This document shows positions 9,918 through 24,702 of a DNA stretch of 30,372 nt, one piece after another; the stretch's first letter is position 1, and the number at the start of each line of letters is the position of its first letter. Below the pieces are notes generated by a model. That model did not search any database. It was not told the origin of the DNA and saw only the letters and a list, made by a program, of their open reading frames with translations. Origin of the DNA: Candidatus Thorarchaeota archaeon. GTDB lineage: Archaea > Asgardarchaeota > Thorarchaeia > Thorarchaeales > Thorarchaeaceae. Position numbers and translations under genes: made by a program. Location of the stretch: contig JBHLQM010000011.1 of NCBI GenBank assembly GCA_048884785.1, positions 1 to 30,372 on the forward strand. Direction: 5' to 3'.

Positions 9918-11417
9918 CTACGGCACAAGTACTGCCGCTGCAGAATTTGCCAAGTCAAGAATTACTCCAGGATAAAGGAATAACACTATCATGCTGATCA
10001 CACAGATTAGTGCGGCAATCATCGGAATCCTTGGTAATGTTATTCTTTCTGTCGATGTAGACTCTGAGAAATACATCACTCTGAGCACTCGCAGGTAGTA
10101 ACCGAGTGAGAATACCACATTCAGGAATCCAATAAGACCCAGCCACCATAGACCGACTTCAGCTGTACTCATGAAGACCATGAATTTGGGAGTAAATCCA
10201 GCGGTTGGAGGGAACCCAGCAAGTGAGAGCATTAGGATACCCAACATAGCGGCGATGATAGGAGACCTCTGACTCAGACCGGATAATTCAGTATATGTGA
10301 TTCGCTTACCCAATGCTATAGACATGGCAAAGATAATGATGAATGCTCCTGCCTTCATTAAGGCATGAATAAATGCGAGGAAGAATGCGGACGATATACC
10401 ATAAGTTGTACTCACCGCAAAGCCAATGAAGACATACCCCATCATAGCAATGCTGCTAAAGGCCAACATTCTGAGAATATCCTTCTGAGCCAAAGCTAGG
10501 AAATTGCCAATTACCATCGTAAGAATAGAAACGACAATGATTAGTCCCAGCCATTCGAAGCGAGCTATGATGAATCCAACCATTAGAATTCGCACCAGCG
10601 CACTGATGCCAGTCTTCTTTGTGGCTCCAGCAAGGTATGCAGTAACACTTCCATCAGCAGTAGCATATGCATCAGGAACCCACATCCAGCCCGGAAATAT
10701 TCCAACCTTGAATCCAAAAGCAATTACAAACAATACCATTGCCAAAAGCAATGTGTATGCTTCTGTAGCAAGAGAAATGGGATCTGCCCAAACTTCTTCT
10801 ATACCTGATGCAACGGCTGAGAGTGCCGTCACACCGGTTATACCATAGACAAGTGCGATACCAAAAATCATGAACATGGTTGATATGAGACCCATGACAA
10901 AATACTTTGTTGCTCCATCAAGAGCTCCTCTATCAGGACTTAATGCAACCAAGATGTAGGTTGGCGTACTCATCAATTCCCAAGCCAAGAAAAGGGCCAC
11001 AAGATCAGTTGCCATTACAACCCACAAGGCTCCTGCAAACGAAATCATGAGCAGAAAATTGTAAGGTCCTTTATCCCCGCCATACTGGGTTGCGGATAGG
11101 AGAACCAAGAATGCAACCACTAATATCAAGTAAATGAAGAAGTCTGCGAATGCATCACGTATGAACAGTCCCCCAAACGAAGAACCATACAAATTGGGAT
11201 TGAGAATCATAACTTCGATGAAGGTGATTATTATCCCAATGATGCTAACTGGTAGTGGGTTGAATCGCATACCAACGACCAGTGCTATGATTGCAAACGC
11301 AATTAGTGTGAGAACTGGCAGCGACCCATACCAAGACTCGGGAAAGAGTAGCAAGAGGTCTCTCAAAGGAGTCATTAACGCCATAAATGCGTTGTATATT
11401 GCATCGAGCTGAAGCAC
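9918..11417 (-). CDS. nuoN: Complex I-like antiporter subunit N
   Basis: AWELMS, ATKYFVMG, GFKVGIFP..MWVPDAY, LRMLAFSSI, LSLAGFPPTAGFTPKF, YYLRV. GTG start overlaps the nuoM TAG. Confidence 0.9.
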   Translation of the reverse strand: MLQLDAIYNAFMALMTPLRDLLLLFPESWYGSLPVLTLIAFAIIALVVGMRFNPLPVSIIGIIITFIEVMILNPNLYGSSFGGLFIRDAFADFFIYLILVVAFLVLLSATQYGGDKGPYNFLLMISFAGALWVVMATDLVALFLAWELMSTPTYILVALSPDRGALDGATKYFVMGLISTMFMIFGIALVYGITGVTALSAVASGIEEVWADPISLATEAYTLLLAMVLFVIAFGFKVGIFPGWMWVPDAYATADGSVTAYLAGATKKTGISALVRILMVGFIIARFEWLGLIIVVSILTMVIGNFLALAQKDILRMLAFSSIAMMGYVFIGFAVSTTYGISSAFFLAFIHALMKAGAFIIIFAMSIALGKRITYTELSGLSQRSPIIAAMLGILMLSLAGFPPTAGFTPKFMVFMSTAEVGLWWLGLIGFLNVVFSLGYYLRVLRVMYFSESTSTERITLPRIPMIAALICVISMIVLFLYPGVILDLANSAAAVLVP

Positions 11418-12979
11418 TAGACCACACCTCCAATAATGAAAACAACAACTTTCATGACCAAATCCAAAATAAGGTCAGGCCAGATGCCTAGGAGTAGAAC
11501 TGGTATCATCATGAGGATTGGTGCGACTAGATCACTCCATGGTGCCTCTTGAACCTCTTTCTCAGGATCAGGGTCACTGAATACTATTCTGTTTAGAGTC
11601 CACAGCAAATAGCCAACTGTAAGGAATATTCCAAGCCCAATCAAACCCGTCCAGATATATCCCTCCACAGATACAGCACCGAATAATGTCAGTGCCTCTG
11701 CAATGAATCCGCTGAATCCAGGAAGTCCAAAGGCAGCGAGAGATGCAAGGATGAAGACTGCTGACATCTTTGGTGCCTTTGACATTAGCCCTTGTATCTG
11801 CGGAATCTCACGCGTGCCAGCAGCATATTTCAGCTGTCCGGCCATAAGGAACATCACAGATATGATGGTTCCATGGCTGAACATCATGAATATGGCACCA
11901 TTTAGTGCAAGACCAGCTGCAGCCTTAACAGCTGCACTCGTACTACCGATACCAACTGCACCAATGGCAACACCCAGCAGGACCCACGACATATGGTTGA
12001 TTGAAGTATATGCTACCATGCTCTTCATATCAGTCTGGGCCATCGCAGTGAAGGCCGCATAGACACATGTGAATACTGCTAATGCTGCGAAGGGGATTGC
12101 AAGTCGGACAAAACCATCAGGGACCATCCACAGACCTAATCTGATGAATGCATAGCCACCCATCTTCAGAAGTATTCCCGCCAAAATGACTGAACCAGGA
12201 GTTGGAGCTTTGACATGAGCCCACGGCAACCAATTGTGTAGTGGGAATACTGGTAGCTTTACACCAGCGCCCATAAAGACTGCGAGAGCGAAACCAATCT
12301 GAACATCAACAGGGAGTCCCATTGCTCTGAGTTCAACCATATTGAAAGTTGGAGTCGGAGCAAGGAAGAATAGAACAAAGAACGAGATTGCCATGACGGC
12401 GGAACCTAGATGCGTGTAGATGACAAACTTCATTGCTGCATGCTCACAGCCCTGCTCCCCATACCTTCCGACGATGAAGAACATCGGGATGAGTACAAGT
12501 TCCCAGAATACAAAGAATCCGAATAGGTCAATTGACATGAAGACTCCCAGAAGGCCTGTCTGCATAAACAGGAACAGAGAGTAATACATGCTTTGGGCTT
12601 TCTTGATATGATTGGAGCTTATCGCTGCTATGAAGACAACTAGATTGGATAGAACAATCATCACTACAGAGAGACCATCAATTCCTACAAGGAGCTGAAG
12701 AACCGGTGAATCAGCTGCAGTACCAAGCACTGCGATAATGAAACTCCATCCATATGTTCCACCAGTTGGATCAGTTAGTTGATAATTGGGATCAATCGCC
12801 CCTGCAAGCAATAGTGATAGGACTAGCTCAATGAATCCTATAACCAATGTCAGCCAGCGGGCTCCTCTCCCTCCGGCGACAAGAGCAAGAAATGCTCCAA
12901 TGACTGGAAGTAGAAGCATGAATGGCAGGATTCCAAAGGGAATCATCGAGATAAGGGATTGAGCAAATTCAAGCTGCAT
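11417..12979 (-). CDS. nuoM: Complex I-like antiporter subunit M
   Basis: GIDGLS, FWELVLIPMF, VKLPVFPLHNWLPWAHVKAPTPGSVILAGILLKMGGY, GLPGFSGFIAE. Confidence 0.92.
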   Translation of the reverse strand: MQLEFAQSLISMIPFGILPFMLLLPVIGAFLALVAGGRGARWLTLVIGFIELVLSLLLAGAIDPNYQLTDPTGGTYGWSFIIAVLGTAADSPVLQLLVGIDGLSVVMIVLSNLVVFIAAISSNHIKKAQSMYYSLFLFMQTGLLGVFMSIDLFGFFVFWELVLIPMFFIVGRYGEQGCEHAAMKFVIYTHLGSAVMAISFFVLFFLAPTPTFNMVELRAMGLPVDVQIGFALAVFMGAGVKLPVFPLHNWLPWAHVKAPTPGSVILAGILLKMGGYAFIRLGLWMVPDGFVRLAIPFAALAVFTCVYAAFTAMAQTDMKSMVAYTSINHMSWVLLGVAIGAVGIGSTSAAVKAAAGLALNGAIFMMFSHGTIISVMFLMAGQLKYAAGTREIPQIQGLMSKAPKMSAVFILASLAAFGLPGFSGFIAEALTLFGAVSVEGYIWTGLIGLGIFLTVGYLLWTLNRIVFSDPDPEKEVQEAPWSDLVAPILMMIPVLLLGIWPDLILDLVMKVVVFIIGGVV

Positions 12980-12980
12980 C

Positions 12981-15332
12981 TTAGATTACCCCCATAGTGA
13001 TGAGAATGACAAGAATCATAATTCCGAATCCAAACATAATCACAGAAACATAGTCATTCACACGGCCTGTTTGCATTGCCTGTCCGCTCTCAGATGCACC
13101 AACACTACGTGTTGATACTCCCTCTGCGAAGCCATCTACCACATTGTCATCAAACCAACGGATTCTCCTGGAGAGTTCTTTGGCAGTATCTGCAGACTTG
13201 AAATCTATTCCATCAATGATATTGTTGTCAACTCTGACACGATACCACTCTGCAAACTTTAGGAACTTGTTCAGTACCCAATAGTAGAACTCATTGATGT
13301 ACCAGCGATGCTTAAGGAAGTTGTAGATTCTCCTCTTGAAGCCACTTTCAGGAATGATTGCATTTGGCTTGTCCCCACGCTTGATGTAGATGAGATAGCC
13401 TGGAATTCCACCAACTGCAAGTGCGAGCAGTGTAATAGTGAAGGGTACAATTCCCAGCTCACTGAATTTGACTGCAATCATCTCAGTGAGGATTTCAGTC
13501 CATGTGTGCTCTGAACCAATGGCAAGCATCTCCACATAGGGGAATACTAGAAACGCAATCAGTGTGAATGCTGCCAGAAGGTATAGAGGAATCATCATGG
13601 CAGGACCAGGATCATGCGGGTCACTGTGGTGTTCTTCTGAAGTGCGCTCTTCGTGGTGCTCGTCAGAGTCCACAAGATGATTATCCACGGTAGTGTCATG
13701 TTCTTCATGATGTCCAGAATCATGACTATCATGATTACCGTGACCGGCCTTGCCGGGGCCGTAGAAGGTTAATCCCATTAATCTAAAGCTGTAGAATATT
13801 GTGCATGCGGCTGCAATTATAGCAAACAAAAATACAAGCCAGCCAACAGACGCTATTAGAATTCCACCATGAGATACTATCTCTCCCTCGACAATCATCA
13901 ACTCATATGCATACTCGATGATTGAGTCTTTTGACCAGAAGCCTGAGAACGGAGGAATTCCGGCTAGAGCCAAGACACCAATCCACATCACTATGAAGGT
14001 CTTTCGCATGTGTTTCCTGAGGCCACCCATCTTTGAGATATACTTCGTATGAACTGCATGAATTACTCCTCCTGAGGCAAGGAATAGTAGTGCCTTGAAT
14101 GCACCATGGGATATCACATGCAGCACACTTGCAAGATAGGCGGATTCATACGCAATATGAGTGGTTAATCCAAGGTCGTGAGCATAAAGACCGTAGAATG
14201 CGAGGAGTCCAGCGGCCCCCAGTCCAAGCATCATGTAGCCGAGCTGGCTGAGTGTCGAAAACGCCAGTATTTGTTTGAGCTCGTTTGAGGTTATACCCAT
14301 TGTTGCTGTCATGAGGGCGGTGACCGCACCTATGACCGCAACAACAATGAAGAAGAATGTAATAGCGTCAGCACCTGAAACCTGTAACAAGTTGAACGCG
14401 TGTTCCCCACCATTGTGATCTCCAGCAGCCGCTGCCTGCGCATCAACCATTGTGAGCAGGAATCGTGCTGTGATGTAGATGCCAGCCTTTACCATAGTAG
14501 CTGCGTGAATTAGTGCGGAAACTGAGGTCGGGCCTGCCATTGCCTCTGGCAGCCACACCTGTAGCGGTGCCTGTCCAGATTTACCAATGGCACCCATGAA
14601 GATCAGAAGGAATGTTGGAATCAGCATTCCAAGTCCAGCCATGGTAGTCCACCACTGCTGGTAGTTCTCTGCCATAAGGCTGAAGGAGAATGTGCCAGTG
14701 AAGGCAAATAATAGAAGGATACCTCCAAGCATGAAAGCATCGCCAATTCGTGTGACTATGAATGCCTTAGTTCCACAATGAGAGTTGTATTGACCTTCGG
14801 TCGTGAATTGAAGTAGAGGATTCTCGTATTCAACCTCGCCAGGTGCAGTCTCAGGTGGATTCCGCTTGTCGTTCCAGAAGCCAATAAGACCGTAGGAGCA
14901 GAAGCCCATAATCTCCCAGCCAATGAACGCAATCAGCAAGTTGTTGCTTAGGACCAGTGTAAGCATTCCACCACCGAAGGCCAGCATCAGGAAGAAGAAC
15001 CTGTCGCGGTCGCCCTCATGTGCCATATACTCTGTGCTGTACACGTAGATTAAGAAACACAACGTGCTTGCGAGTACAGCCATGATAACTGAGAGTGGGT
15101 CAAGGAGGACCTCGAAGCTAATACCCAGGTAGTCAATCCATACCCACGAAGTCGTACCAACTGGATTATCCACTTCCAGAAGAAGGGACCAACAAAGAAC
15201 CATTGCGATACCCATCATGATTGCAGGAGTCCAGTCTCGGAGTTTCTCACTGAACCTACCAACAATAGGCACTAGCAGAGCTCCAGCCAATGGGATTACA
15301 AGGATTAGGTAGTAGGGTAGTCCGAACAGCAT
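12981..15332 (-). CDS. nuoL: Complex I-like antiporter subunit L, long form (783 aa) with His-rich loop and extended lateral helix
   Basis: GWEIMGFCSYGLIGFW, KAFIVTRIGD, GKSGQAPLQVWLPEAMAGPTSVSALIHAATMV, HGAFKALLFL, GFWSKD, QTGRVNDY. Confidence 0.93.
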   Translation of the reverse strand: MLFGLPYYLILVIPLAGALLVPIVGRFSEKLRDWTPAIMMGIAMVLCWSLLLEVDNPVGTTSWVWIDYLGISFEVLLDPLSVIMAVLASTLCFLIYVYSTEYMAHEGDRDRFFFLMLAFGGGMLTLVLSNNLLIAFIGWEIMGFCSYGLIGFWNDKRNPPETAPGEVEYENPLLQFTTEGQYNSHCGTKAFIVTRIGDAFMLGGILLLFAFTGTFSFSLMAENYQQWWTTMAGLGMLIPTFLLIFMGAIGKSGQAPLQVWLPEAMAGPTSVSALIHAATMVKAGIYITARFLLTMVDAQAAAAGDHNGGEHAFNLLQVSGADAITFFFIVVAVIGAVTALMTATMGITSNELKQILAFSTLSQLGYMMLGLGAAGLLAFYGLYAHDLGLTTHIAYESAYLASVLHVISHGAFKALLFLASGGVIHAVHTKYISKMGGLRKHMRKTFIVMWIGVLALAGIPPFSGFWSKDSIIEYAYELMIVEGEIVSHGGILIASVGWLVFLFAIIAAACTIFYSFRLMGLTFYGPGKAGHGNHDSHDSGHHEEHDTTVDNHLVDSDEHHEERTSEEHHSDPHDPGPAMMIPLYLLAAFTLIAFLVFPYVEMLAIGSEHTWTEILTEMIAVKFSELGIVPFTITLLALAVGGIPGYLIYIKRGDKPNAIIPESGFKRRIYNFLKHRWYINEFYYWVLNKFLKFAEWYRVRVDNNIIDGIDFKSADTAKELSRRIRWFDDNVVDGFAEGVSTRSVGASESGQAMQTGRVNDYVSVIMFGFGIMILVILITMGVI

Positions 15333-15343
15333 TTTTGATCACC

Positions 15344-16891
15344 TCATGGAATGGGAATCAGATCTTTGAAGGGAATCAAGTTCGGTATTGCGTCCACTGC
15401 GGGCACTATGATATCAAGCGCTATTCCTGGGAATATTCCAAAGAACACGATGAGGAACCCGAGAATTATCATTGGGATTGTCATTGATCTCGGCCCTTCT
15501 GTCACTCCATCGAGTTCTTGGGGATGTGGTCCTAGAAACACTTTCCAGAAGAAGCGCAGCATATATCCTGCACTCATTATGGTGCTGGATACTGCAAGTA
15601 CAGAAAGTATCAGGAAGTTCATGAACACGGTTTCTGAACCTGGAGGCGCAGCTGCATGGAATCCACCAAGGAACATCATCCACTCGCTCGCAAACCCAGA
15701 AAGCGGGGGGCTACCAGCAATGCTCATCATACCTATCGCTGCCATGAAGGCAGTAATGGGCATCTTGTTTGAGAGACCACCAAGCTCGTCAATATTCCGT
15801 ATATGTGTCTGATGCATAACCGTCCCGGCAGTCATGAACAACAGACCTTTGGAGAATGCATGATTGATAAGATGGAAGAGACCACCTGATACGCCATAAA
15901 CAGTGAAGACTCCTAGGGCAAACAGGACATAGCCCATCTGAGACACAGACGAGTATGCTAAGAGACGTTTGATATCTTTCTGAACAAGTGCCATGAAACC
16001 TCCATAAAACATGGTTATGACACCAATGGTTGCAATCCAGAAAGATAGGCTGGCTGCTGCAGGTCCAAGTGTGATTGTCCCAAACCGGACAAGTGCATAC
16101 GCTCCGGTTTCAATCATTGCACCTGATAGCAGAACTGAGATGGGGGTTGGAGCTTCAGCATGAACTGGAGGAAGCCACCAATGAATCGGGAATACTGCCA
16201 TCTTGACCAGAAATCCTGCGGCAAGAAGAATGAAGATTAACTTCAGAAGATCAGTGGCACCAACATATGTTGACAAGAGAAGCTGTATTGTAGCAAGGTC
16301 AAATGTGCTTGCCCCGCTCAGGAAGTAGAGAAGTCCGAAGCCTATCAGAATACAGACTGCTCCGCTCTGAGTATATAGCCAGAATTTCAAAGCAGTGCGC
16401 TTTCGTGATTCAGGCAGTCCCCAAAGTAGGATGAGGAAATACGAAGGCACAAGCATGAGTTCCCAGGCGATGAAGAACTCAATCATATTTGTGGCCAATG
16501 TGACCCATTGCATACCCATTAGAAAGAACAGTTGATTCGCAAAGAAGGCAGGTTTACTGTGTTCGTGTGAGGTGTAGCCAACTGCGTAGACAACAGAGAG
16601 AAAGCCAAGCACGACAACTGCAAATGTGATCGGAAATGCAATGCCATCAAGATATAACCCGAATGCGCCAAGTAGAGAAGACCAAGTCATTCCTTCATAC
16701 GCTGGTCCACCCTCAACCATAATTCGGAAGAAGGGTGGAATCATTAGGATTACTGAAACACCTGAAAAGGCAACAGCAATCTTTCCAGCACGGTCTCCAA
16801 TTCTATTTTTGAACAGGTAAATTAGAAGGCCACCAACGAAGAGGACAATAAGTGAGAGGGCCATAAATGGCGGTTCGAATGTTGCCTGCAT
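15344..16891 (-). CDS. nuoM: Second NuoM/MrpD-like antiporter subunit (extra 'M2')
   Basis: AWELMLVPSYFLI, VKMAVFPIHWWLPPVHAEAPTPISVLLSG, DIKRLLAYSSVSQMGY, GFASEW (TM12 Glu as in NuoM). No lateral helix. Confidence 0.85.
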   Translation of the reverse strand: MQATFEPPFMALSLIVLFVGGLLIYLFKNRIGDRAGKIAVAFSGVSVILMIPPFFRIMVEGGPAYEGMTWSSLLGAFGLYLDGIAFPITFAVVVLGFLSVVYAVGYTSHEHSKPAFFANQLFFLMGMQWVTLATNMIEFFIAWELMLVPSYFLILLWGLPESRKRTALKFWLYTQSGAVCILIGFGLLYFLSGASTFDLATIQLLLSTYVGATDLLKLIFILLAAGFLVKMAVFPIHWWLPPVHAEAPTPISVLLSGAMIETGAYALVRFGTITLGPAAASLSFWIATIGVITMFYGGFMALVQKDIKRLLAYSSVSQMGYVLFALGVFTVYGVSGGLFHLINHAFSKGLLFMTAGTVMHQTHIRNIDELGGLSNKMPITAFMAAIGMMSIAGSPPLSGFASEWMMFLGGFHAAAPPGSETVFMNFLILSVLAVSSTIMSAGYMLRFFWKVFLGPHPQELDGVTEGPRSMTIPMIILGFLIVFFGIFPGIALDIIVPAVDAIPNLIPFKDLIPIP

Positions 16892-17327: not shown

Positions 17328-18452
17328 TTAACCTCCTATAACAAAGCCTGCTAATCCTGGCACGTAGACTATTGCAAACATAGCCAGAAGGACATTCAAC
17401 ATTGATAATGGAAGGAGATACTTCCAACAGAAGTATACAATCTGATCTTGCCTGAGCCTGTGGAATGATGAACTTACAAACACAAACAAGAATAGAACAA
17501 TCAGGAACTTGATGAGGAAATTGACAACACCGGGCAAAAATGGAATTCCATTGAATCCGCCCAAGAAGAATGTGACAATAAGAGCTGAGTAAAGCATCTG
17601 CTCCGCAAACTCAGCGAAATATGTCAAAGTGAAATAGATACCGGAAAATTCTGTTCTCCACCCAAAGATGATCTCTGAGTCAGCAACCGGTGCATCAAAT
17701 GGAAATGTGCCAACAGATGCAATTGCTGCAGCAAGGAATGTTACGCAGTTGATTGGAAGCAGAACGATATACCAAATTGCACTCTGGGCTTGTGTAATAG
17801 CCATTACACTCAATGATCCAGCCAGCATTGCAGGTCCAACTGAAGAGATAATCATGGGAATCTCAGCGGCGAACTGATTGTTGGCTGCTCTGAAGCCTCC
17901 GATGAGAGAATACTTCGAACCGCTAATCCAACCCGAAAGCAGAGCAATCACAGGGACCGCAGTAAGAAACGCGAAAATCAATACAAGACTCACAGAGAGA
18001 TCAGCAATGACCCACGTTGTATCCCAGGGAATAAATGCAAAGGGTAACAATACAATTACCAGCAATAGCGATGGCAAAAACCTGTACATCCATCGGCTTG
18101 CGTTTCGAGGGATAATTGTTTCCTTCGCCACTAGTTTGATTGCGTCAGCGAAGAGCTGCAAACCACCATACTTGCCCAAATGGAATGGACCGCGTCGCAT
18201 CTGAATACGGCCCCATAACTTTCTTGTCGCCCACACAAAGAAGATGAGCGTCATAACAATGAATATGAGACCTGGGAAGAGCACTGTCTTAAATAGAAAC
18301 CAGAAGTTTTGAACTACAAGAAGCCAAATGAAATCAACGACACTTTCTATCCAGAGTACCACCTGATGAAGGAAGTTCCAAATTATTGCAATTATGTTCC
18401 ATATCCACTGAGGAATTCCTGCAAGCCATTCAAAGAAATCAAACTGCAACAT
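17328..18452 (-). CDS. nuoH: Complex I subunit H, with Trp-rich N-terminal extension
   Basis: RKLWGRIQMRRGP, GLQLFADAIKLVAKE, SKYSLIGGFRA, PFDAPVADSEI..G..TEFSG, RLRQDQ. Start reassigned to ATG 18452 (GGAGGTGG upstream; avoids the overlap with nuoD). Confidence 0.92.
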   Translation of the reverse strand: MLQFDFFEWLAGIPQWIWNIIAIIWNFLHQVVLWIESVVDFIWLLVVQNFWFLFKTVLFPGLIFIVMTLIFFVWATRKLWGRIQMRRGPFHLGKYGGLQLFADAIKLVAKETIIPRNASRWMYRFLPSLLLVIVLLPFAFIPWDTTWVIADLSVSLVLIFAFLTAVPVIALLSGWISGSKYSLIGGFRAANNQFAAEIPMIISSVGPAMLAGSLSVMAITQAQSAIWYIVLLPINCVTFLAAAIASVGTFPFDAPVADSEIIFGWRTEFSGIYFTLTYFAEFAEQMLYSALIVTFFLGGFNGIPFLPGVVNFLIKFLIVLFLFVFVSSSFHRLRQDQIVYFCWKYLLPLSMLNVLLAMFAIVYVPGLAGFVIGG

Positions 18453-18466
18453 TATTCCACCTCCCA

Positions 18467-19603
18467 TCATCGATCCCACCATCCCACGTATGGATCTAGA
18501 CTGCCAAATATTGCAATGAAATCTGCAAACCTTGATCCGGGAGTCAAATACTTGAGTGCCTGATAGGAATTCAGGCAAGATCCGCGTATCTTTGCACGGT
18601 AGGGTGTTTGTGCCTTGTCCTCTGTTTTCAGCCAGAGTCCAAGTACACCTCGTGTACCTTCTACACGTCCATAGGCCTCACCGGCTGGAAGTCGGTTCGC
18701 TTTAGCGCGAGCCTTTGGATCTGCAATCTCTCCTTCGGGGACCTGGGGGAGTAGCTGTCGTATAATATTGATTGATGTTCGGACTTCCTTGAACCTTTGA
18801 ACCATTCTGTCATATGCGTCACTCTCCCCGGGATGATTGGGATTCTCAGTGATCGGAACCTCCCAATCAACCAGGTCGTATGCAAGATTGGGGTCTGGCA
18901 TATCTTTCCTGAGATCCATTGGTAATCCACATGCCTTGACATTGGGTCCTGATAGACCCCATTTGAGAGCCTGCTTGGCGGAATACTGTCCGATACCTTC
19001 AGTTCTCCTTCTGAAGAGAGGACTACCCATTAGCATATCCTCAAACTTTGACATGTTTGCCTCCATATGAGCAATCGCCTTTTCCAGGGTTTGCACTGAT
19101 TTCTCAGTAAAATCATACTTCACGCCACCAGGAGTATTGTATGATACTGTATGTCTGGAACCAGTAAGCTCCTCAAATGCATTCAAGAAGAATTCACGGT
19201 CAATCCATGGCCAGATGAGCATGGCAAAGAAACCCAGCTCTGCTGAGAACTGCCCCCACCAGAATTGAATTGAGTGGATCCTACTTGCTTCCATCATTAT
19301 TGTACGCATGACTTTCGCTCTATCAGGAACCTCTAATTCCGCAATCTGCTCTACCGCAGAGATATAGGGATATTCAGAGAGAAACGCTTCAAGCATGCAT
19401 AATCTCTCCATGACCAATGAACCTTGTCTGAAATTGCGAAATTCAAGAACCTTCTCTGCGGATCTATGAAAGTACCCAGCATGCGGATCACATTCAACAA
19501 TGAAGTCACCGACAACTTTCAGTTTTGCAGCCCATCCATGAGCTGACACATGCTGAGGTCCAAACCAAACATCAACTGATTCATCAACAATATCCGGACT
19601 CAT
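18467..19603 (-). CDS. nuoD: Complex I subunit D-like large subunit, no [NiFe] ligands
   Basis: FGPQHVSAHG, GYFHRSAEK, EASRIHS, DAYDR, VEGTRG.LG, PYRAKIRG, GSLDPYVGWWDR. Lacks both CxxC motifs of hydrogenase large subunits. Confidence 0.9.
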   Translation of the reverse strand: MSPDIVDESVDVWFGPQHVSAHGWAAKLKVVGDFIVECDPHAGYFHRSAEKVLEFRNFRQGSLVMERLCMLEAFLSEYPYISAVEQIAELEVPDRAKVMRTIMMEASRIHSIQFWWGQFSAELGFFAMLIWPWIDREFFLNAFEELTGSRHTVSYNTPGGVKYDFTEKSVQTLEKAIAHMEANMSKFEDMLMGSPLFRRRTEGIGQYSAKQALKWGLSGPNVKACGLPMDLRKDMPDPNLAYDLVDWEVPITENPNHPGESDAYDRMVQRFKEVRTSINIIRQLLPQVPEGEIADPKARAKANRLPAGEAYGRVEGTRGVLGLWLKTEDKAQTPYRAKIRGSCLNSYQALKYLTPGSRFADFIAIFGSLDPYVGWWDR

Positions 19604-20127
19604 TCGCTGGCACCTCCTCTCTCTGGGCGTGGTTTTGGAGTCGCCAGACCAGATTCGTCAACCCGACTTCTGTCGATTACAAAGCTCTTTCGAAGTGGGT
19701 ATTGTCCCTCAAGCTCATCTGGAAGAAGCAAGAGCCTTAGGTCAGGATGGCCCTGAAAATGAATACCGTACATTTCGTGCGTTTCTCGTTCATGCCATTC
19801 AAATGCAGGGAAGATGTCAGATGTTGTATCTATTGATGGCTCAGGACCTGAGAGTTCAACGCGGATTTGACAAATGAAATTGTTCAGGTGCGAATAGAGA
19901 ATGTAAATCACCTGATACTTGTCCTCTCCAAGGTCAACTCCAAAAACACACTCTGGGAATATCATCTGAACGGATTCATCAAAGAGGGCAATGAGATCTC
20001 TAATCTGTTCTTTCCTGGGAGAGAATTCCGCACGGTTTTCGTTAATCATGTTAATTGTAATGTCGGGAAAGCGAGCTTGTACTGTTCTCACAAGAGCTGA
20101 GAGAGAGATCAAATCGATAGCATCCAT
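19600..20127 (-). CDS. nuoC: Complex I subunit C
   Basis: FPAFEWHERETHEMYGIHFQGHPDLRLLLLP..YPLRK. Start reassigned to ATG 20127 directly after the nuoK stop (AGGAG upstream). Confidence 0.92.
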   Translation of the reverse strand: MDAIDLISLSALVRTVQARFPDITINMINENRAEFSPRKEQIRDLIALFDESVQMIFPECVFGVDLGEDKYQVIYILYSHLNNFICQIRVELSGPEPSIDTTSDIFPAFEWHERETHEMYGIHFQGHPDLRLLLLPDELEGQYPLRKSFVIDRSRVDESGLATPKPRPERGGASE

Positions 20128-20128
20128 T

Positions 20129-20440
20129 TTACACAGACTCCTCCTTAATTGGACGGCCAAGATCGACCGTTCCATACCTTCGATTATACATCAACATCAG
20201 AACAAGTGCAAGTGCCGTGTGAGCAGCGGCTACTGATATAACAAGAATAATGAGACCCTGAGGTGTGAATGAAAAAACACCTCCGTAAACAGCAAAAGCG
20301 ACCAGTGCCAGATTGACGCCATTACCCATTATTTCAGCACCAATAAGGATTCTAATTAGATTCCGTTTCACGATCATTCCGTAGGCTCCCAGACCCACCA
20401 ACATGAACGCAACAACGAGATACCAACTGAGAGGAACCAT
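20129..20440 (-). CDS. nuoK: Complex I subunit K
   Basis: GAYGMIVKRNLIRILIGAEIMGNGVNL, three TM helices. Confidence 0.9.
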   Translation of the reverse strand: MVPLSWYLVVAFMLVGLGAYGMIVKRNLIRILIGAEIMGNGVNLALVAFAVYGGVFSFTPQGLIILVISVAAAHTALALVLMLMYNRRYGTVDLGRPIKEESV

Positions 20441-21078
20441 TACTCTTCAGCCTCCTCAGTTTCACTGGATATCTCATCAGCCTCAACTTCAGGCTGAGGT
20501 TCAGCTTCTATACCGAACTCTCCGGTAATGCCAACCAATGCTTCAGCCTTGTCCATCTTCATCATAGCGATGGCACCTACTAGTGTAGTAAGAATAAGCA
20601 AAGCTACAATTTGAACATAGATTCCATGATCACTCCATAGCCATTCGGCTAGCCCTTGAAGGCTTTGTGAAAGCTCCGGTACTCCCTCTACAATATATTC
20701 GGGCCAGGGGAAGGCCAGTGCAAGCCCGGCTGAAATTGCCATAACCACAGCTGCAATTAATCTACCAACTTGACGAGCTCGCGCAGATTCAAACACCTCC
20801 AATGACCTGTCTTGCGCTCTTGGGAGCAGGAGAACACCGAAGATTATCAAGGCGCTAATGCCTCCCGTGTAAACAGCTATCTGCATACCGGCAATGAAAG
20901 GTGCATCAAGCAATAGAAAGAAGCCAGCAACAAAACTAGCCATAAATCCGAAGAAGAATACAGCATAGACAATATCCTTGTGTTCAAGGGCAAGATATGC
21001 AAGGATGAGCACAACACCTGCAATAAGTAGGAATTCAACCTGCTCAAATAATTCCAGTACGGGTTCTATCTCCTGCAT
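20440..21078 (-). CDS. nuoK-adjacent nuoJ: Complex I subunit J
   Basis: LDAPFIAGMQIAVYTGGISALIIF, five TM helices, acidic tail. Start reassigned to ATG 21078 (GAGG upstream, 16 nt after the nuoA stop). Confidence 0.88.
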   Translation of the reverse strand: MQEIEPVLELFEQVEFLLIAGVVLILAYLALEHKDIVYAVFFFGFMASFVAGFFLLLDAPFIAGMQIAVYTGGISALIIFGVLLLPRAQDRSLEVFESARARQVGRLIAAVVMAISAGLALAFPWPEYIVEGVPELSQSLQGLAEWLWSDHGIYVQIVALLILTTLVGAIAMMKMDKAEALVGITGEFGIEAEPQPEVEADEISSETEEAEE

Positions 21079-21094
21079 CTTAGTAACCTCTATT

Positions 21095-21523
21095 CTAATG
21101 ATGGATCTCTTTTCTAGCTGCTTTCGCTTGGAGATACGCCTCCACTGTTTCCTTTCCATCTAGGGATGCTTGGGGCAAACGTTTCATGACAAACGAGATC
21201 CCGCCCATGATGACAAGCACAAAGAGAAGTGTCTGCCACAGAATGAGAGCCTCCAATCTCAATGTTGATGCAGATAGTAACCAGAGAAAAGCACCCATTA
21301 CATCAACAACGACAAAGAGAATTGTATACACAATGTAGTTGTACGGATAGGATATCCTTGCCGGACCAATGGGCTCTTCACCACATTCGTAGGTAGATGT
21401 CTTCTCCGAATTCTGAAGGACGTGGGGGCGCAAGACCCACGACGCAAGGAGCATCACAACTACCAGAACCATAGCAAGTAATGCCCAAACCAAAACGGGT
21501 ACGAAATCTACGAATAATCTCAT
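21095..21523 (-). CDS. nuoA: Complex I subunit A
   Basis: EKTSTYECGEEPIG, YTILFVVVDV, three TM helices. Confidence 0.92.
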   Translation of the reverse strand: MRLFVDFVPVLVWALLAMVLVVVMLLASWVLRPHVLQNSEKTSTYECGEEPIGPARISYPYNYIVYTILFVVVDVMGAFLWLLSASTLRLEALILWQTLLFVLVIMGGISFVMKRLPQASLDGKETVEAYLQAKAARKEIHH

Positions 21524-21845
21524 GATATGGTGCCATCCTTTTGTATCTTGTTTGCTAATCCTTGTGGATAAGTATGGTCTAGGGAAACGAGTTTCTCTCC
21601 TATGTAAATGTGTCCCCTTGCCATGATTGGTTTAACCCTTCTTCGTTTTCTTGTTACAGAAATAGATAGATATCGAATCATTCAGATTGATGATTGATAT
21701 TTTTGCATCAAAGGGTAATGCATATTCTGTAACTTGAGGGCGGCGGTAATTCCTCCCATATTAAAAACGCTTCGAATCTTCAGAAGAAGAAGTTAAATAT
21801 CGTATGTATTCCTCGATGCTCTAGAATTCCCTTGACATATAATAG

Positions 21846-22205
21846 GTGATAAGCTTGAATACAACCGAAGAGGGTGGTTTCTTCTATTATCTCGCGCTCC
21901 TCATAGGTATGGTCTTTGTCGGAGCATACCTATGGCACATCATGACTACTCCCACATCTAGTCAGATATTCCAATTCATTTTAGTAATGTCTGGAATACT
22001 GCTTGTGGCAAGCTCTTTCATGTTTGCCTATAGCAATACGCGCTCAATGAGAATAGGCATGACGATGGCCTCAGGAATTCTTGGTGGAATCCATGGATTC
22101 TTGACGCTTACGTTGTTCGATCTCATAACAGGAATAATACTCTTTGCCTGGATGGCATTCGGTATCCTCCTTGCATTTGCAGCCTTCAATTGGCTTCATG
22201 AGTAG
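21846..22205 (+). CDS. Small integral membrane protein (about 4 TM), function unknown
   Basis: Four hydrophobic segments in 119 aa; divergent from nuoA. The start may be TTG ~21856 after a GGTGA SD. Confidence 0.7.
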   Translation: MISLNTTEEGGFFYYLALLIGMVFVGAYLWHIMTTPTSSQIFQFILVMSGILLVASSFMFAYSNTRSMRIGMTMASGILGGIHGFLTLTLFDLITGIILFAWMAFGILLAFAAFNWLHE

Positions 22206-22219
22206 AATGATAGGAATCC

Positions 22220-22765
22220 TCAATCGGTAGTCTCAGAAGAGGCTGCCGATGATTCCTTAGTTTCTGAGGCCTGTTCTTCAGTTGCCTTTTCTGCAGGAGA
22301 TTCGCTCTCTGGTTTGGTAGTTTCGTCTTCAGGTACTTCCAAAGGAGGACCATACTTCAATTTTGAAACATCCATTATCCCAGGGGTCATTGCCTCTTCA
22401 GTATACTCCTTTGAACGAATCATGGCAAATCCTCCAGCTACAAGAATAACAGAGCCAATTGACCAGCTCGAGAGAAATGCTGTGTCACTGAGAGGCGAGG
22501 AGTTAATCACGAAATACAGCATGTAAAACATTGAGAAGACAGCGGCAATCGCAAGCATGGTAAGTTTTGACCTACCTCGTTCCACAGCAAAATACCTGTA
22601 GAAAAATGGGAGGGACAGAATAGGCCAAATCATCAACCAGAAAGACTGATCCCAGGTTGTCAAAGCTTGCAGCAATTGGTATAGGAAGCTGAAGTAATAT
22701 GCGCTGAGGAGGAGGATGCCCAACCAGACAAGACAATATGGTTCACTATCTTCCCGCAGCTTCAT
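22220..22765 (-). CDS. Membrane protein (about 4 TM) with acidic low-complexity tail, translationally coupled to the FAD-NuoB fusion
   Basis: ATGA overlap at 22762-22765; hydrophobic helices followed by an E/S/T-rich tail. Confidence 0.75.
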   Translation of the reverse strand: MKLREDSEPYCLVWLGILLLSAYYFSFLYQLLQALTTWDQSFWLMIWPILSLPFFYRYFAVERGRSKLTMLAIAAVFSMFYMLYFVINSSPLSDTAFLSSWSIGSVILVAGGFAMIRSKEYTEEAMTPGIMDVSKLKYGPPLEVPEDETTKPESESPAEKATEEQASETKESSAASSETTD

Positions 22766-24702
22766 TGGATCATCCCCATCGCATCTTGATTCTCATATTT
22801 CCTCTGCCAATGAGTTGTTCCGGCACGAATCTTGTTCTGAAGAATTAGATGTGCTCTTACAAAGTCAGCTGGCTTTGGCGGACACCCTGGCAAGTAGACG
22901 TCTACAGGGACAACCTTCTCAGGCGGTGTCATTAGAGAGTAGCCATCCCAGAACAAACCACCACTTGCAGCGCACTGTCCAAATGAGATGACATACTTGG
23001 GCTCTGGCATCTGCTCGTAGATCCGTCGCAATCTTGGTGCCATCTTCTTGGTGAGGGACCCGGATATCCAGAGAACATCAGCCTGACGAGGACCAAAGAG
23101 AGGTAGCATTCCAAACCGTTCAATATCCCATCGTGATGCCACAGCGGCCGCACCATCAGCCATGCAGCAACCTAAACCATACTGAACAGGCCATGGACTG
23201 TGAGCCCGTCCCCAGCGAAGCATCCATTTGAGTGGAGGCAGATTTTGCAGCCACTTCAGCAGTATTGGAGCTATCCGGCCAAAACCGTTCCTAAAGAGGT
23301 CGTAGAATATCCACATGAAGTATTTACCAAACTTGAGAATCATGGGCAGCCAGAATGCAAAGATCTTGCCGGGATTGGATATCTCATTCTTGTCATACTT
23401 GAGTTTGGCACCACGAATCTTTGCGAGCCGTCGTTTGCCAAAGTACGTAGGTGCGTAATTTGCAAACCAAATCCCTGTGCTGTGTGGGTGGCCACCATGA
23501 CGCTGAGCAATCTTGAATATAACGAAGCTCTGTGACCAAGAGAGCATGAAGAAGTGACGGCGTTCGTCCTCCAAGAAGTAGCCCATCATGGTCACTCCTG
23601 TCTTTGATGTTACATAGCCATCTATCCCTGCTTCAGCAGAAGCTTGCTCAAACTGGAAATCATCCAAAATGGCTTCAAGGGTCTCAAGAGGTGCAAAGGC
23701 CTGCCCAACAACAAGAGTCGGTCCTGCCTTCTTTACTCGCATTGGATAGAACCTGTCATGCCACTCATGTGCAGCAATATGCTCGTCGTAGAGCTGCCCC
23801 TTGTATTCCTCTGTGACACGTCGTACTACATCAAAACCTTCCTCAATCTCTTCCTCAGTTCCCTCATATGCCACAAGTACTGTCCCATGATGGACAGGGA
23901 ATGGAAAGGGCTCTTCTGGATTCCAGATCTTCTTCTTGAGGTCAGTGTATTTACTCTCTTCAAACTTAATCGTGAATGGAAGTGGACCATCATGCATCAT
24001 CTTTTCCATTGCCATTACCATGAGATAATTCTCAGGAAAACTTGCGACAATAGGTTTGATTGGCATTAGAGGTTTTATCTTCAATTTGATCTTTGTAATG
24101 ATTCCAAGAATACCTTCAGTATCACAGAAGAGGTCAGTATCGGTACTCTTGACCAGCTTCCCTGTTGGAAGGACAACTTCAAACTCTAGCACATTCTTGT
24201 TAATATTCCCATATTTCAGGGATCCAATTCCATCGCCACCCTGAGCTACCCATCCTCCAACAGTTGCTGCCAATCCAGATGATGGATAGCAGCGCAAGTC
24301 CATCCCGTTTCTATTCAATTCATGCTGCAGATTCGACCAGGAGATTCCAGGTTCCACCAGAACAAAATGATTCTCCTTATCTATCTCAAGAATCCTATTC
24401 ATTGGCCGAATATCAACGATGATTCCTCCCTTGCGAGGAATCGCACCTCCGTAACCCGAAGTTCCTGCGCCACGAGGAACAAGAGGAATCTTTTCTTCAT
24501 TAGCGAACTTGTAGAGGGCAACAATTTCCTCTGGGGTATGTGGTTGAACTAGCGCATCCGGCTTGTTGTTCATCAACCATCCTACTTGCTTAGGAAGTGC
24601 ACCTACGTCTGTGGATAAGATGAGCCGCTCATGCTTCTCAGTGATGAGTCGGTCGCCAAAGATTTCAGACAGCTTCTCGATCTGCTTTTTCTTTAGTCCC
24701 AT
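22762..24702 (-). CDS. nuoB: Fusion: FAD-binding oxidoreductase (GlcD/D-lactate dehydrogenase/VAO-PCMH fold, aa 1-~448) plus complex I subunit B (aa ~490-646)
   Basis: N-part: PDALVQP, PLVPRGAGTSGYGG, VLVEPG, ATVGGWVAQGGDG..SLKYG, TEGILGIITK, NPGKIF. C-part: WGRAHSPWPVQYGLGCC, PRQADVL, MAPRLRRIYEQMPEPKYVISFGQCAASGG, VPVDVYLPGCPP. Single uninterrupted frame. Confidence 0.93.
   Translation of the reverse strand: MGLKKKQIEKLSEIFGDRLITEKHERLILSTDVGALPKQVGWLMNNKPDALVQPHTPEEIVALYKFANEEKIPLVPRGAGTSGYGGAIPRKGGIIVDIRPMNRILEIDKENHFVLVEPGISWSNLQHELNRNGMDLRCYPSSGLAATVGGWVAQGGDGIGSLKYGNINKNVLEFEVVLPTGKLVKSTDTDLFCDTEGILGIITKIKLKIKPLMPIKPIVASFPENYLMVMAMEKMMHDGPLPFTIKFEESKYTDLKKKIWNPEEPFPFPVHHGTVLVAYEGTEEEIEEGFDVVRRVTEEYKGQLYDEHIAAHEWHDRFYPMRVKKAGPTLVVGQAFAPLETLEAILDDFQFEQASAEAGIDGYVTSKTGVTMMGYFLEDERRHFFMLSWSQSFVIFKIAQRHGGHPHSTGIWFANYAPTYFGKRRLAKIRGAKLKYDKNEISNPGKIFAFWLPMILKFGKYFMWIFYDLFRNGFGRIAPILLKWLQNLPPLKWMLRWGRAHSPWPVQYGLGCCMADGAAAVASRWDIERFGMLPLFGPRQADVLWISGSLTKKMAPRLRRIYEQMPEPKYVISFGQCAASGGLFWDGYSLMTPPEKVVPVDVYLPGCPPKPADFVRAHLILQNKIRAGTTHWQRKYENQDAMGMIQ

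Follow-up and report, generated by a model that had tools for sequence, protein, structure and literature searches.

Complex I enzymes of the '2M' type, as described in papers citing Chadwick, Hemp, Fischer & Orphan 2018 (ISME J 12:2668), have a second NuoM-type subunit and a NuoL helix lengthened by ~26 residues, lack the NuoE and NuoF genes, and have been proposed to move a fifth ion per 2 electrons (PMC6606698, PMC9040806, PMC7300363, PMC7419157). A '2M, clade 2' complex I has been published for one archaeal group, the heterotrophic marine Thaumarchaea (HMT), whose genomes are ~1 Mb in size (PMC7300363). The rhizobial 'green' complex I has four pumps and the Manganitrophaceae Complex_I_3 has five, the extra subunits being MrpD-like and replacing NuoL (PMC9040806), and group-4 [NiFe]-hydrogenase complexes of Asgard archaea contain an L-like subunit with a lateral helix (HL) (PMC11291895; bioRxiv 10.1101/2024.07.04.601786). 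Here, we analyzed a 30,372-nucleotide stretch of contig JBHLQM010000011.1 (assembly GCA_048884785.1; the whole stretch is called the window below) from a Candidatus Thorarchaeota archaeon, a Thor-type Asgard metagenome-assembled genome (MAG) of 3.6 Mb that is 91% complete. A gene cluster in the window probably encodes a complex-I-like ion pump that lacks NuoEFG, has X, L, M, and N as the antiporter-like subunits of a four-pump membrane arm, and belongs to an archaeal '2M' family. A literature search found no paper describing a four-pump complex I in Asgard archaea; by its genes, the Thor operon would be a clear new member of an already described 2M design.

The cluster comprised 13 genes on the minus strand (24702-9918), in the order FAD::NuoB (a flavin adenine dinucleotide [FAD]-linked oxidase fused to NuoB), o181 (a 181-amino-acid membrane protein), NuoA, J, K, C, D, H, I, X, L, M, and N (Table 1). 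The first-pass annotation had described the last four as consecutive, tightly spaced Mrp-like genes of 515, 783, 520, and 499 amino acids (aa); the open reading frames (ORFs) lay exactly where it had placed them, and all four matched the Pfam family Proton_antipo_M (PF00361) with E values of 1e-56 to 1e-69. NCBIfam models named X as NDH_I_M (310.7 bits; cutoff, 263.8), the 783-aa protein as NuoL, the 520-aa protein as NDH_I_M (401 bits), and the 499-aa protein as NDH_I_N. The intergenic spacing was 0 nt between I and X, 11 nt between X and L, 1 nt between L and M, and -1 nt between M and N, and a GGAGG-like site preceded each of X, L, M, and N, which sit in one translationally coupled block. 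These four were the only PF00361 genes in the whole genome, and there was only one NuoD homolog, which leaves no second complex that X could be part of. No NuoE, NuoF, or NuoG gene was present in the operon, and no match to NuoF (Complex1_51K) was found in the genome, the genome-wide search having covered NuoF only and not NuoE or NuoG.

With a second NuoM-type gene and hence four pumps, a NuoL helix longer by 27 residues, and no NuoF found, the Thor cluster resembled 2M complex I as characterized in the papers cited above, and the earlier 2M designation was therefore retained. Set against those same descriptions, the Thor M genes flank nuoL (X-L-M-N) and represent two old M lineages rather than recent duplicates, NuoB is fused to a flavoenzyme in Thor genomes, and A-J-K precede C-D-H-I.

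Both X and the 520-aa NuoM carried the WLPxxHxxAPTPxS motif and a Glu in transmembrane helix 12 (TM12), the residue that sets M apart from L and N, which have Lys at TM12. The TM5 Glu, TM7 Lys, TM11 His, and TM12 Glu were invariant in 129 X orthologs, and X thus appears from the alignment to retain every charged residue named for a working M-type pump. More than 100 X orthologs, with 69-88% identity, came from Thor-type MAGs; outside the ortholog group, an exhaustive search of representatives found nothing above 47% identity to X, and every named relative was archaeal. Also among the best X matches were fused multipump polypeptides, each of them one protein of 1250-1330 aa that contains three antiporter-like stretches (for example, Sporomusa carbonis WP_425059080.1).

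Trees were built because the closest PDB sequence matches of X were MrpA, MbhH, and MbsH', all ranked above NuoM. The references in the main tree were E. coli NuoL/M/N and HyfB/D/F, the S. meliloti pSymA 'green complex I', and S. aureus and Rhizobium Mrp, with no MbhH sequence included. X and M fell into one M-type clade (support, 100), and MrpD, MrpA/NuoL, and N were all separate, in agreement with the earlier assignment of two NuoM-type subunits. The Mrp/Mbh origin of X suggested by the PDB matches was rejected on this placement. The first-pass annotation had considered that the 515-aa protein might instead group with MrpD/Mbh partners encoded elsewhere; X stood apart from both MrpD and MrpA of S. 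aureus and Rhizobium, and the rest of the genome contained no further PF00361 gene and no Mrp or Mbh module (small Mrp subunits were not searched for directly). The M-type clade was split into two old lineages: canonical NuoM, with E. coli, S. meliloti, and the 520-aa M of the operon (support, 100), and an archaeal lineage, with X and the M-position subunit (X') of L'-X'-N' modules. X as a recent in-operon duplicate of NuoM, which would make X and the operon M an exclusive clade, was rejected by the approximately unbiased (AU) test (p = 0.0001). A 'mosaic arm', with L and X from the hydrogenase-module lineage and M and N canonical, agreed with the best L tree (support, 99); the alternative survived the AU test (p = 0.13), and the mosaic is not claimed.

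The closest nonorthologous relatives of both X (43-46% identity) and L were in the L'-X'-N' modules of Asgard group-4 hydrogenases. These modules differ from the Thor cluster in having three pumps, a NuoD homolog with the NiFe CxxC motif (ERICGICS), and a mostly short helix, and no group-4 hydrogenase complex of this kind was present in the source genome, whose single NuoD homolog lacks the NiFe pairs. Green complex I and Complex_I_3 share with the Thor enzyme the presence of more than three pump subunits; unlike them, the Thor cluster keeps a full NuoL with HL, and its X is M-type and was placed in the tree away from the MrpD-like subunits of pSymA.

The distribution of X and M was surveyed in 121 Asgard genomes and then in a scan of species-representative genomes. 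Within the family of the source genome, X orthologs were present in 12 of 17 genomes and the 520-aa M in 11 of 17, and two genera of the family had hydrogenase-type modules only. The full order FAD::NuoB-o181-A-J-K-C-D-H-I-X-L-M-N recurred in nine or more further Thor-type genomes or contigs. An I/K-X-L-M-N core with unfused NuoB, the state of the Heimdall-type operons, was found in Heimdallarchaeum aukensis (complete genome), a Heimdallarchaeota MAG, a sister family, and Asgard family f12. X-L-M-N also occurred in Bathyarchaeia, in Nitrososphaeria DRTY6, and in a 0.9-Mb Thaumarchaeote, L116, that lacked AmoA (tested with PF12942). The L116 operon had the order A-B-C-D-H-I-J-K-X-L-M-N and a helix longer by one module (+1), and its M and X grouped with those of other archaeal four-pump operons. 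The genome size and the lack of AmoA suggest that L116 belongs to the published HMT group, whose 2M complex I is, like the Thor enzyme, archaeal and without NuoEFG (PMC7300363); HMT and L116 differ from Thor in phylum, in their classical gene order, and in their unfused NuoB. The grouping with this HMT-like genome bears indirectly on where the Thor operon belongs among the 2M clades of Chadwick et al. 2018.

Nitrosopumilaceae and other ammonia oxidizers had the order A-B-C-D-H-I-J-K-X-L-N (L093, L091, L124, and ~35 further Nitrosopumilaceae loci), with X, upstream of L, as their only M. This complex I (nuoABCDHIJK-M-L-N) shares with the Thor enzyme an X-type M upstream of L, related L and N lineages, a NuoD without the canonical Tyr, and the lack of NuoEFG, and it differs in its shorter helix and in having just three pumps, the canonical-type M that lies between L and N being absent. 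In a 44-row tree, the ammonia-oxidizer X nested beside that of four-pump Nitrososphaerota (support, 97). Inside canonical NuoM, the M copies from every archaeal four-pump operon were monophyletic (support, 92), and the X and M topologies were congruent. Because ammonia-oxidizing archaea have K-X-L-N with X as the only M, X is probably the resident archaeal NuoM equivalent, and the canonical-type 520-aa M between L and N is probably the pump added relative to K-X-L-N operons. The gene upstream of nuoL, which the first-pass annotation had taken for the extra M, is thus likely not the added one.

The same annotation had also proposed an independent archaeal instance of the 2M design. An archaeal 2M enzyme had already been published for HMT (PMC7300363), and the Thor operon shared its gene order, its helix state, and a monophyletic M clade with Thaumarchaeota and Bathyarchaeia operons, which points to membership in a wider archaeal 2M family with the order X-L-M-N and to common ancestry with the other archaeal 2M operons rather than a separate invention. 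An Asgard four-pump arm that arose independently of other 2M enzymes would fit the repeated convergent 2M origins reported by Chadwick et al. 2018, to go by the title and the citing papers, and the best tree, in which the Thor/Heimdall X clade was not sister to the Bathyarchaeia/Thaumarchaeota/f12 X clade. We regard this convergence as unlikely, given the single clade of M copies, the X-L-M-N order and +1 helix module common to these operons, and the survival of a single clade of all operon X proteins in the AU test (p = 0.20).

Family f12 also had five-pump operons, A-B-C-D-H-I-J-K-Xa-Xb-L-M-N, in which three of the five antiporter-like genes were M-type with a TM12 Glu. Five pumps have otherwise been reported only for Manganitrophaceae (PMC9040806).

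The lateral helix of NuoL contained two 27-residue modules, both with the pattern D..hhDG; module 1 starts with VDNNIIDG, and module 2, the extra unit, which starts with DDNVVDG, was absent from E. coli NuoL and from ammonia-oxidizer K-X-L-N operons. Helix length was measured as the residues counted between two fixed anchors, and the source NuoL had 78, compared with 49 in E. coli and 54 in the K-X-L-N operons of ammonia-oxidizing archaea. All ten Thor and Heimdall four-pump operons had 77-79 residues, all five Bathyarchaeia and Nitrososphaerota four-pump operons had 79, and family f12 operons with four or five pumps had 106, i.e., two modules more (+2). At least one extra module was present in 16 of 16 Asgard four- or five-pump operons and 5 of 5 non-Asgard X-L-M-N operons measured; within X-L-type operons, the count rose from 54 in K-X-L-N to 79 in the X-L-M-N operons of the nearest relatives. 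Hydrogenase-type L' proteins had 51-53 residues in nine of ten modules, the sole exception being a +1 L' of the hydrogenase lineage in a Hodarchaeota MAG (L024), where only L'-X' was visible within 20 kb. Canonical three-pump Asgard operons (L048, and L037-L039 of family f20), with the NuoD Tyr kept (DRLCY) and no extra pump gene in the operon, had a +1 or +2 helix.

At the positions of the NiFe cysteine pairs, NuoD had GPQHVSAHG, ERLCM, and DPYVGWWDR in place of RxCGxC and DPCxxC, and the enzyme is therefore not a hydrogenase. The quinone-site His of NuoD was kept and the canonical Tyr was replaced by Met (in ERLCM), which, with the lack of a NuoF match, distinguishes the Thor enzyme from the canonical 14-subunit complex I; ammonia-oxidizing archaea had Ile at the Tyr position. 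MenA (TIGR00751; 105 bits; equivalog cutoff, 102) was encoded 1.4 kb past the window end, adjoining a polyprenyl synthase gene. The block of which these two are part, 1.4-9.9 kb past the window end (L036:1390-9905), also encoded two GlcD-like FAD oxidases, a CCG/HdrD-like iron-sulfur protein, and a geranylgeranyl-reductase-family protein. Since no NuoF gene was found, reduced ferredoxin and/or the flavoenzyme fused to NuoB is the likely electron donor, as has been proposed for Asgard relatives (PMC9723677), and a menaquinone-type carrier is the likely acceptor.

In the proposed mechanism, electrons would be supplied by reduced ferredoxin that docks at NuoI, by the fused flavoenzyme, or by both, and would pass through the iron-sulfur clusters of NuoI and NuoB to a menaquinone-type carrier at the NuoD/B/H pocket. 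A conformational and electrostatic wave would then drive four pump modules and the E-channel, with up to 5 ions moved per 2 electrons. The arm would have the order H/A/J/K - N - M - X - L, in which the one extra HL module of 27 residues, ~40 Å long or roughly one subunit width, would let L sit one position further out. By our own arithmetic from textbook potentials, ferredoxin to menaquinone spans ~0.38 V, or ~73 kJ per 2 electrons, and NADH to menaquinone yields ~47 kJ; 5 ions per 2 electrons would be affordable with a ferredoxin-level donor and menaquinone but not with NADH and menaquinone. The large redox gap with which the first-pass annotation had explained an additional pump is a reasonable hypothesis.

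Several points weigh against this interpretation. Gene content, gene conservation, charged-residue conservation, helix length, and phylogeny were observed directly; that all four subunits assemble in one arm, the order of X and M along it, and the ion stoichiometry are what we infer. NuoD lacks the canonical quinone Tyr, which makes the menaquinone-type acceptor no more than likely; the same Tyr is missing in ammonia-oxidizing archaea, so its loss does not exclude a quinone. X may be sister to all canonical NuoM, since one clade of the two survived the AU test (p = 0.21). AlphaFold2 (AF2) modeled the NuoL core well (predicted template modeling score, 0.77), and Foldseek confirmed a NuoL fold; the model drew one 72-residue helix (677-748) through both HL modules, with a predicted local distance difference test (pLDDT) score of 37-55 there, too low for a reliable helix length. 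The central TM8 Lys was replaced by Glu in 128 of 129 X orthologs. Finally, a +1 helix was found in eight canonical three-pump Asgard operons and one hydrogenase-type module and a +2 helix in one further three-pump operon, and the helix state changed 7 times on the L tree, with only 3 independent contrasts (sign test, p ~0.5). Helix length as proof of a fourth pump was dropped on account of these three-pump operons; the long lateral helix is permissive evidence, not proof.

The TM8 replacement, together with the Gln that X orthologs have at the position of E. coli NuoM His322, the ranking of MrpA, MbhH, and MbsH' ahead of NuoM, and the place of the X' relatives in true [NiFe] group-4 hydrogenase modules, would suit an X that is bound to the complex without being an in-line fourth pump, whether distal to L, lateral, or acting as a structural or different-ion (e.g., Na+) module. 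Such a role is very unlikely in our judgment, as X groups with M-type subunits and not with MrpD/MrpA, an X-type protein is the sole M of the ammonia-oxidizer enzyme, helix lengthening fits in-line insertion, and neither a further PF00361 gene nor Mrp small-subunit partners (not searched for directly) were indicated in the genome. The presence of long helices in three-pump operons also bears on a model in which X and the 520-aa M are isoforms that alternate in a single M position, giving two three-pump enzymes, like the NdhD/NdhF paralogs of cyanobacterial NDH-1 variants; both are M-type with a TM12 Glu, ammonia-oxidizing archaea manage with X alone, and canonical Asgard operons manage with M alone. 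We consider this alternation improbable because X and M are single-copy genes in one translationally coupled block with gaps of 0 to 11 nt, were co-inherited with congruent trees across three archaeal phyla, and are accompanied by a lengthened helix in every X-L-M-N operon, in contrast to the short helix of K-X-L-N. Alternative subunits in cyanobacteria are encoded in separate, separately regulated loci, unlike X and M.

The arm with four in-line pumps, which we prefer, was also addressed by pair prediction. The X-M pair gained weak support, scoring 0.35, compared with 0.00 for the best control, with runs agreeing in at least 82% of contacts and a partner pLDDT of at least 81. Of 80 solved complexes, 58 reached the mark for a pass, as did 2 of 110 mismatched pairs, but only 7 of the 80 had scores of 0.60 or below; the X-M pass may reflect resemblance to solved complex I pairs.

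Table 1. Features of the complex-I-like cluster in the window, followed by the five-pump operons of Asgard family f12
Feature	Position	Strand	Basis
FAD-linked oxidase (GlcD-like) fused to NuoB; four Cys for cluster N2 present	22762-24702	-	Pfam, NCBIfam
o181, conserved 181-aa membrane protein	22220-22765	-	ORF, synteny
NuoA	21095-21523	-	ORF, synteny
NuoJ	20440-21159	-	ORF, synteny
NuoK	20129-20440	-	ORF, synteny
NuoC	19600-20175	-	Pfam
NuoD, without NiFe CxxC pairs	18467-19603	-	Pfam, motif check
NuoH; real start probably downstream of listed TTG	17328-18578	-	Pfam
NuoI, two 4Fe-4S motifs; stop codon abuts X start codon	16892-17323	-	Pfam
X, 515-aa M-type antiporter-like subunit, archaeal lineage	15344-16891	-	Pfam, NCBIfam, alignment, trees
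NuoL, 783 aa, TM12 Lys-Asp, lateral helix HL, TM16 anchor	12981-15332	-	Pfam, NCBIfam, AF2 model
NuoL His/Asp/Glu-rich loop between TM14 and TM15, ~aa 527-575	13608-13754	-	Alignment; AF2 pLDDT <50 over residues 529-569
HL module 1, NuoL aa 701-727	13152-13232	-	Alignment
HL module 2, NuoL aa 728-754; extra 27-residue unit	13071-13151	-	Alignment
NuoM, 520 aa, canonical type (TM8 Lys, TM12 Glu)	11417-12979	-	NCBIfam, alignment, trees
NuoN, 499 aa (TM12 Lys)	9918-11417	-	NCBIfam, alignment, tree
Family f12 five-pump locus	L053:5343-13490
Family f12 five-pump locus	L054:6334-14481
Family f12 five-pump locus	L055:455-7123

Other features of the cluster were also recorded. The His/Asp/Glu-rich loop of NuoL was found in the Thor family only, was variable in length, was predicted to be disordered, and was unrelated to pump number; a metal-binding or regulatory role is possible. 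The o181 gene had no Pfam or NCBIfam family match; it overlapped the FAD::NuoB stop by 4 nt and came after FAD::NuoB in all Thor operons examined. Between o181 and nuoA lay a gap of 696 nt (21524-22219) with a 119-aa hydrophobic ORF on the opposite strand (21846-22205), and for this reason the cluster may consist of two transcription units.

The operons form a natural series, from K-X-L-N with a short helix (ammonia oxidizers) through X-L-M-N with a +1 helix (Thor, Heimdall, Bathyarchaeia, and small Thaumarchaeota) to Xa-Xb-L-M-N with a +2 helix (one Asgard family), which could serve to test whether one pump corresponds to one helix module. For annotation, the caution is that a fourth pump cannot be deduced from the length of the NuoL helix. 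Pump number sets the energy kept per electron pair, and the four-pump enzyme without NuoEFG, the only antiporter-bearing complex in the genome and encoded near MenA, suggests that this lineage, usually modeled as fermentative, conserves energy by a chemiosmotic, quinone-linked route. More tentatively, Asgard archaea could possess a graded series of complex-I-like enzymes with three or four pumps, or with five in one family, in which pump number was tuned by the joint addition of M-type subunits and 27-residue helix modules and the Thor/Heimdall enzyme is a ferredoxin- or flavoenzyme-fed menaquinone reductase moving ~5 ions per 2 electrons. If this were true, supposedly fermentative relatives of eukaryotes would be high-yield anaerobic respirers.

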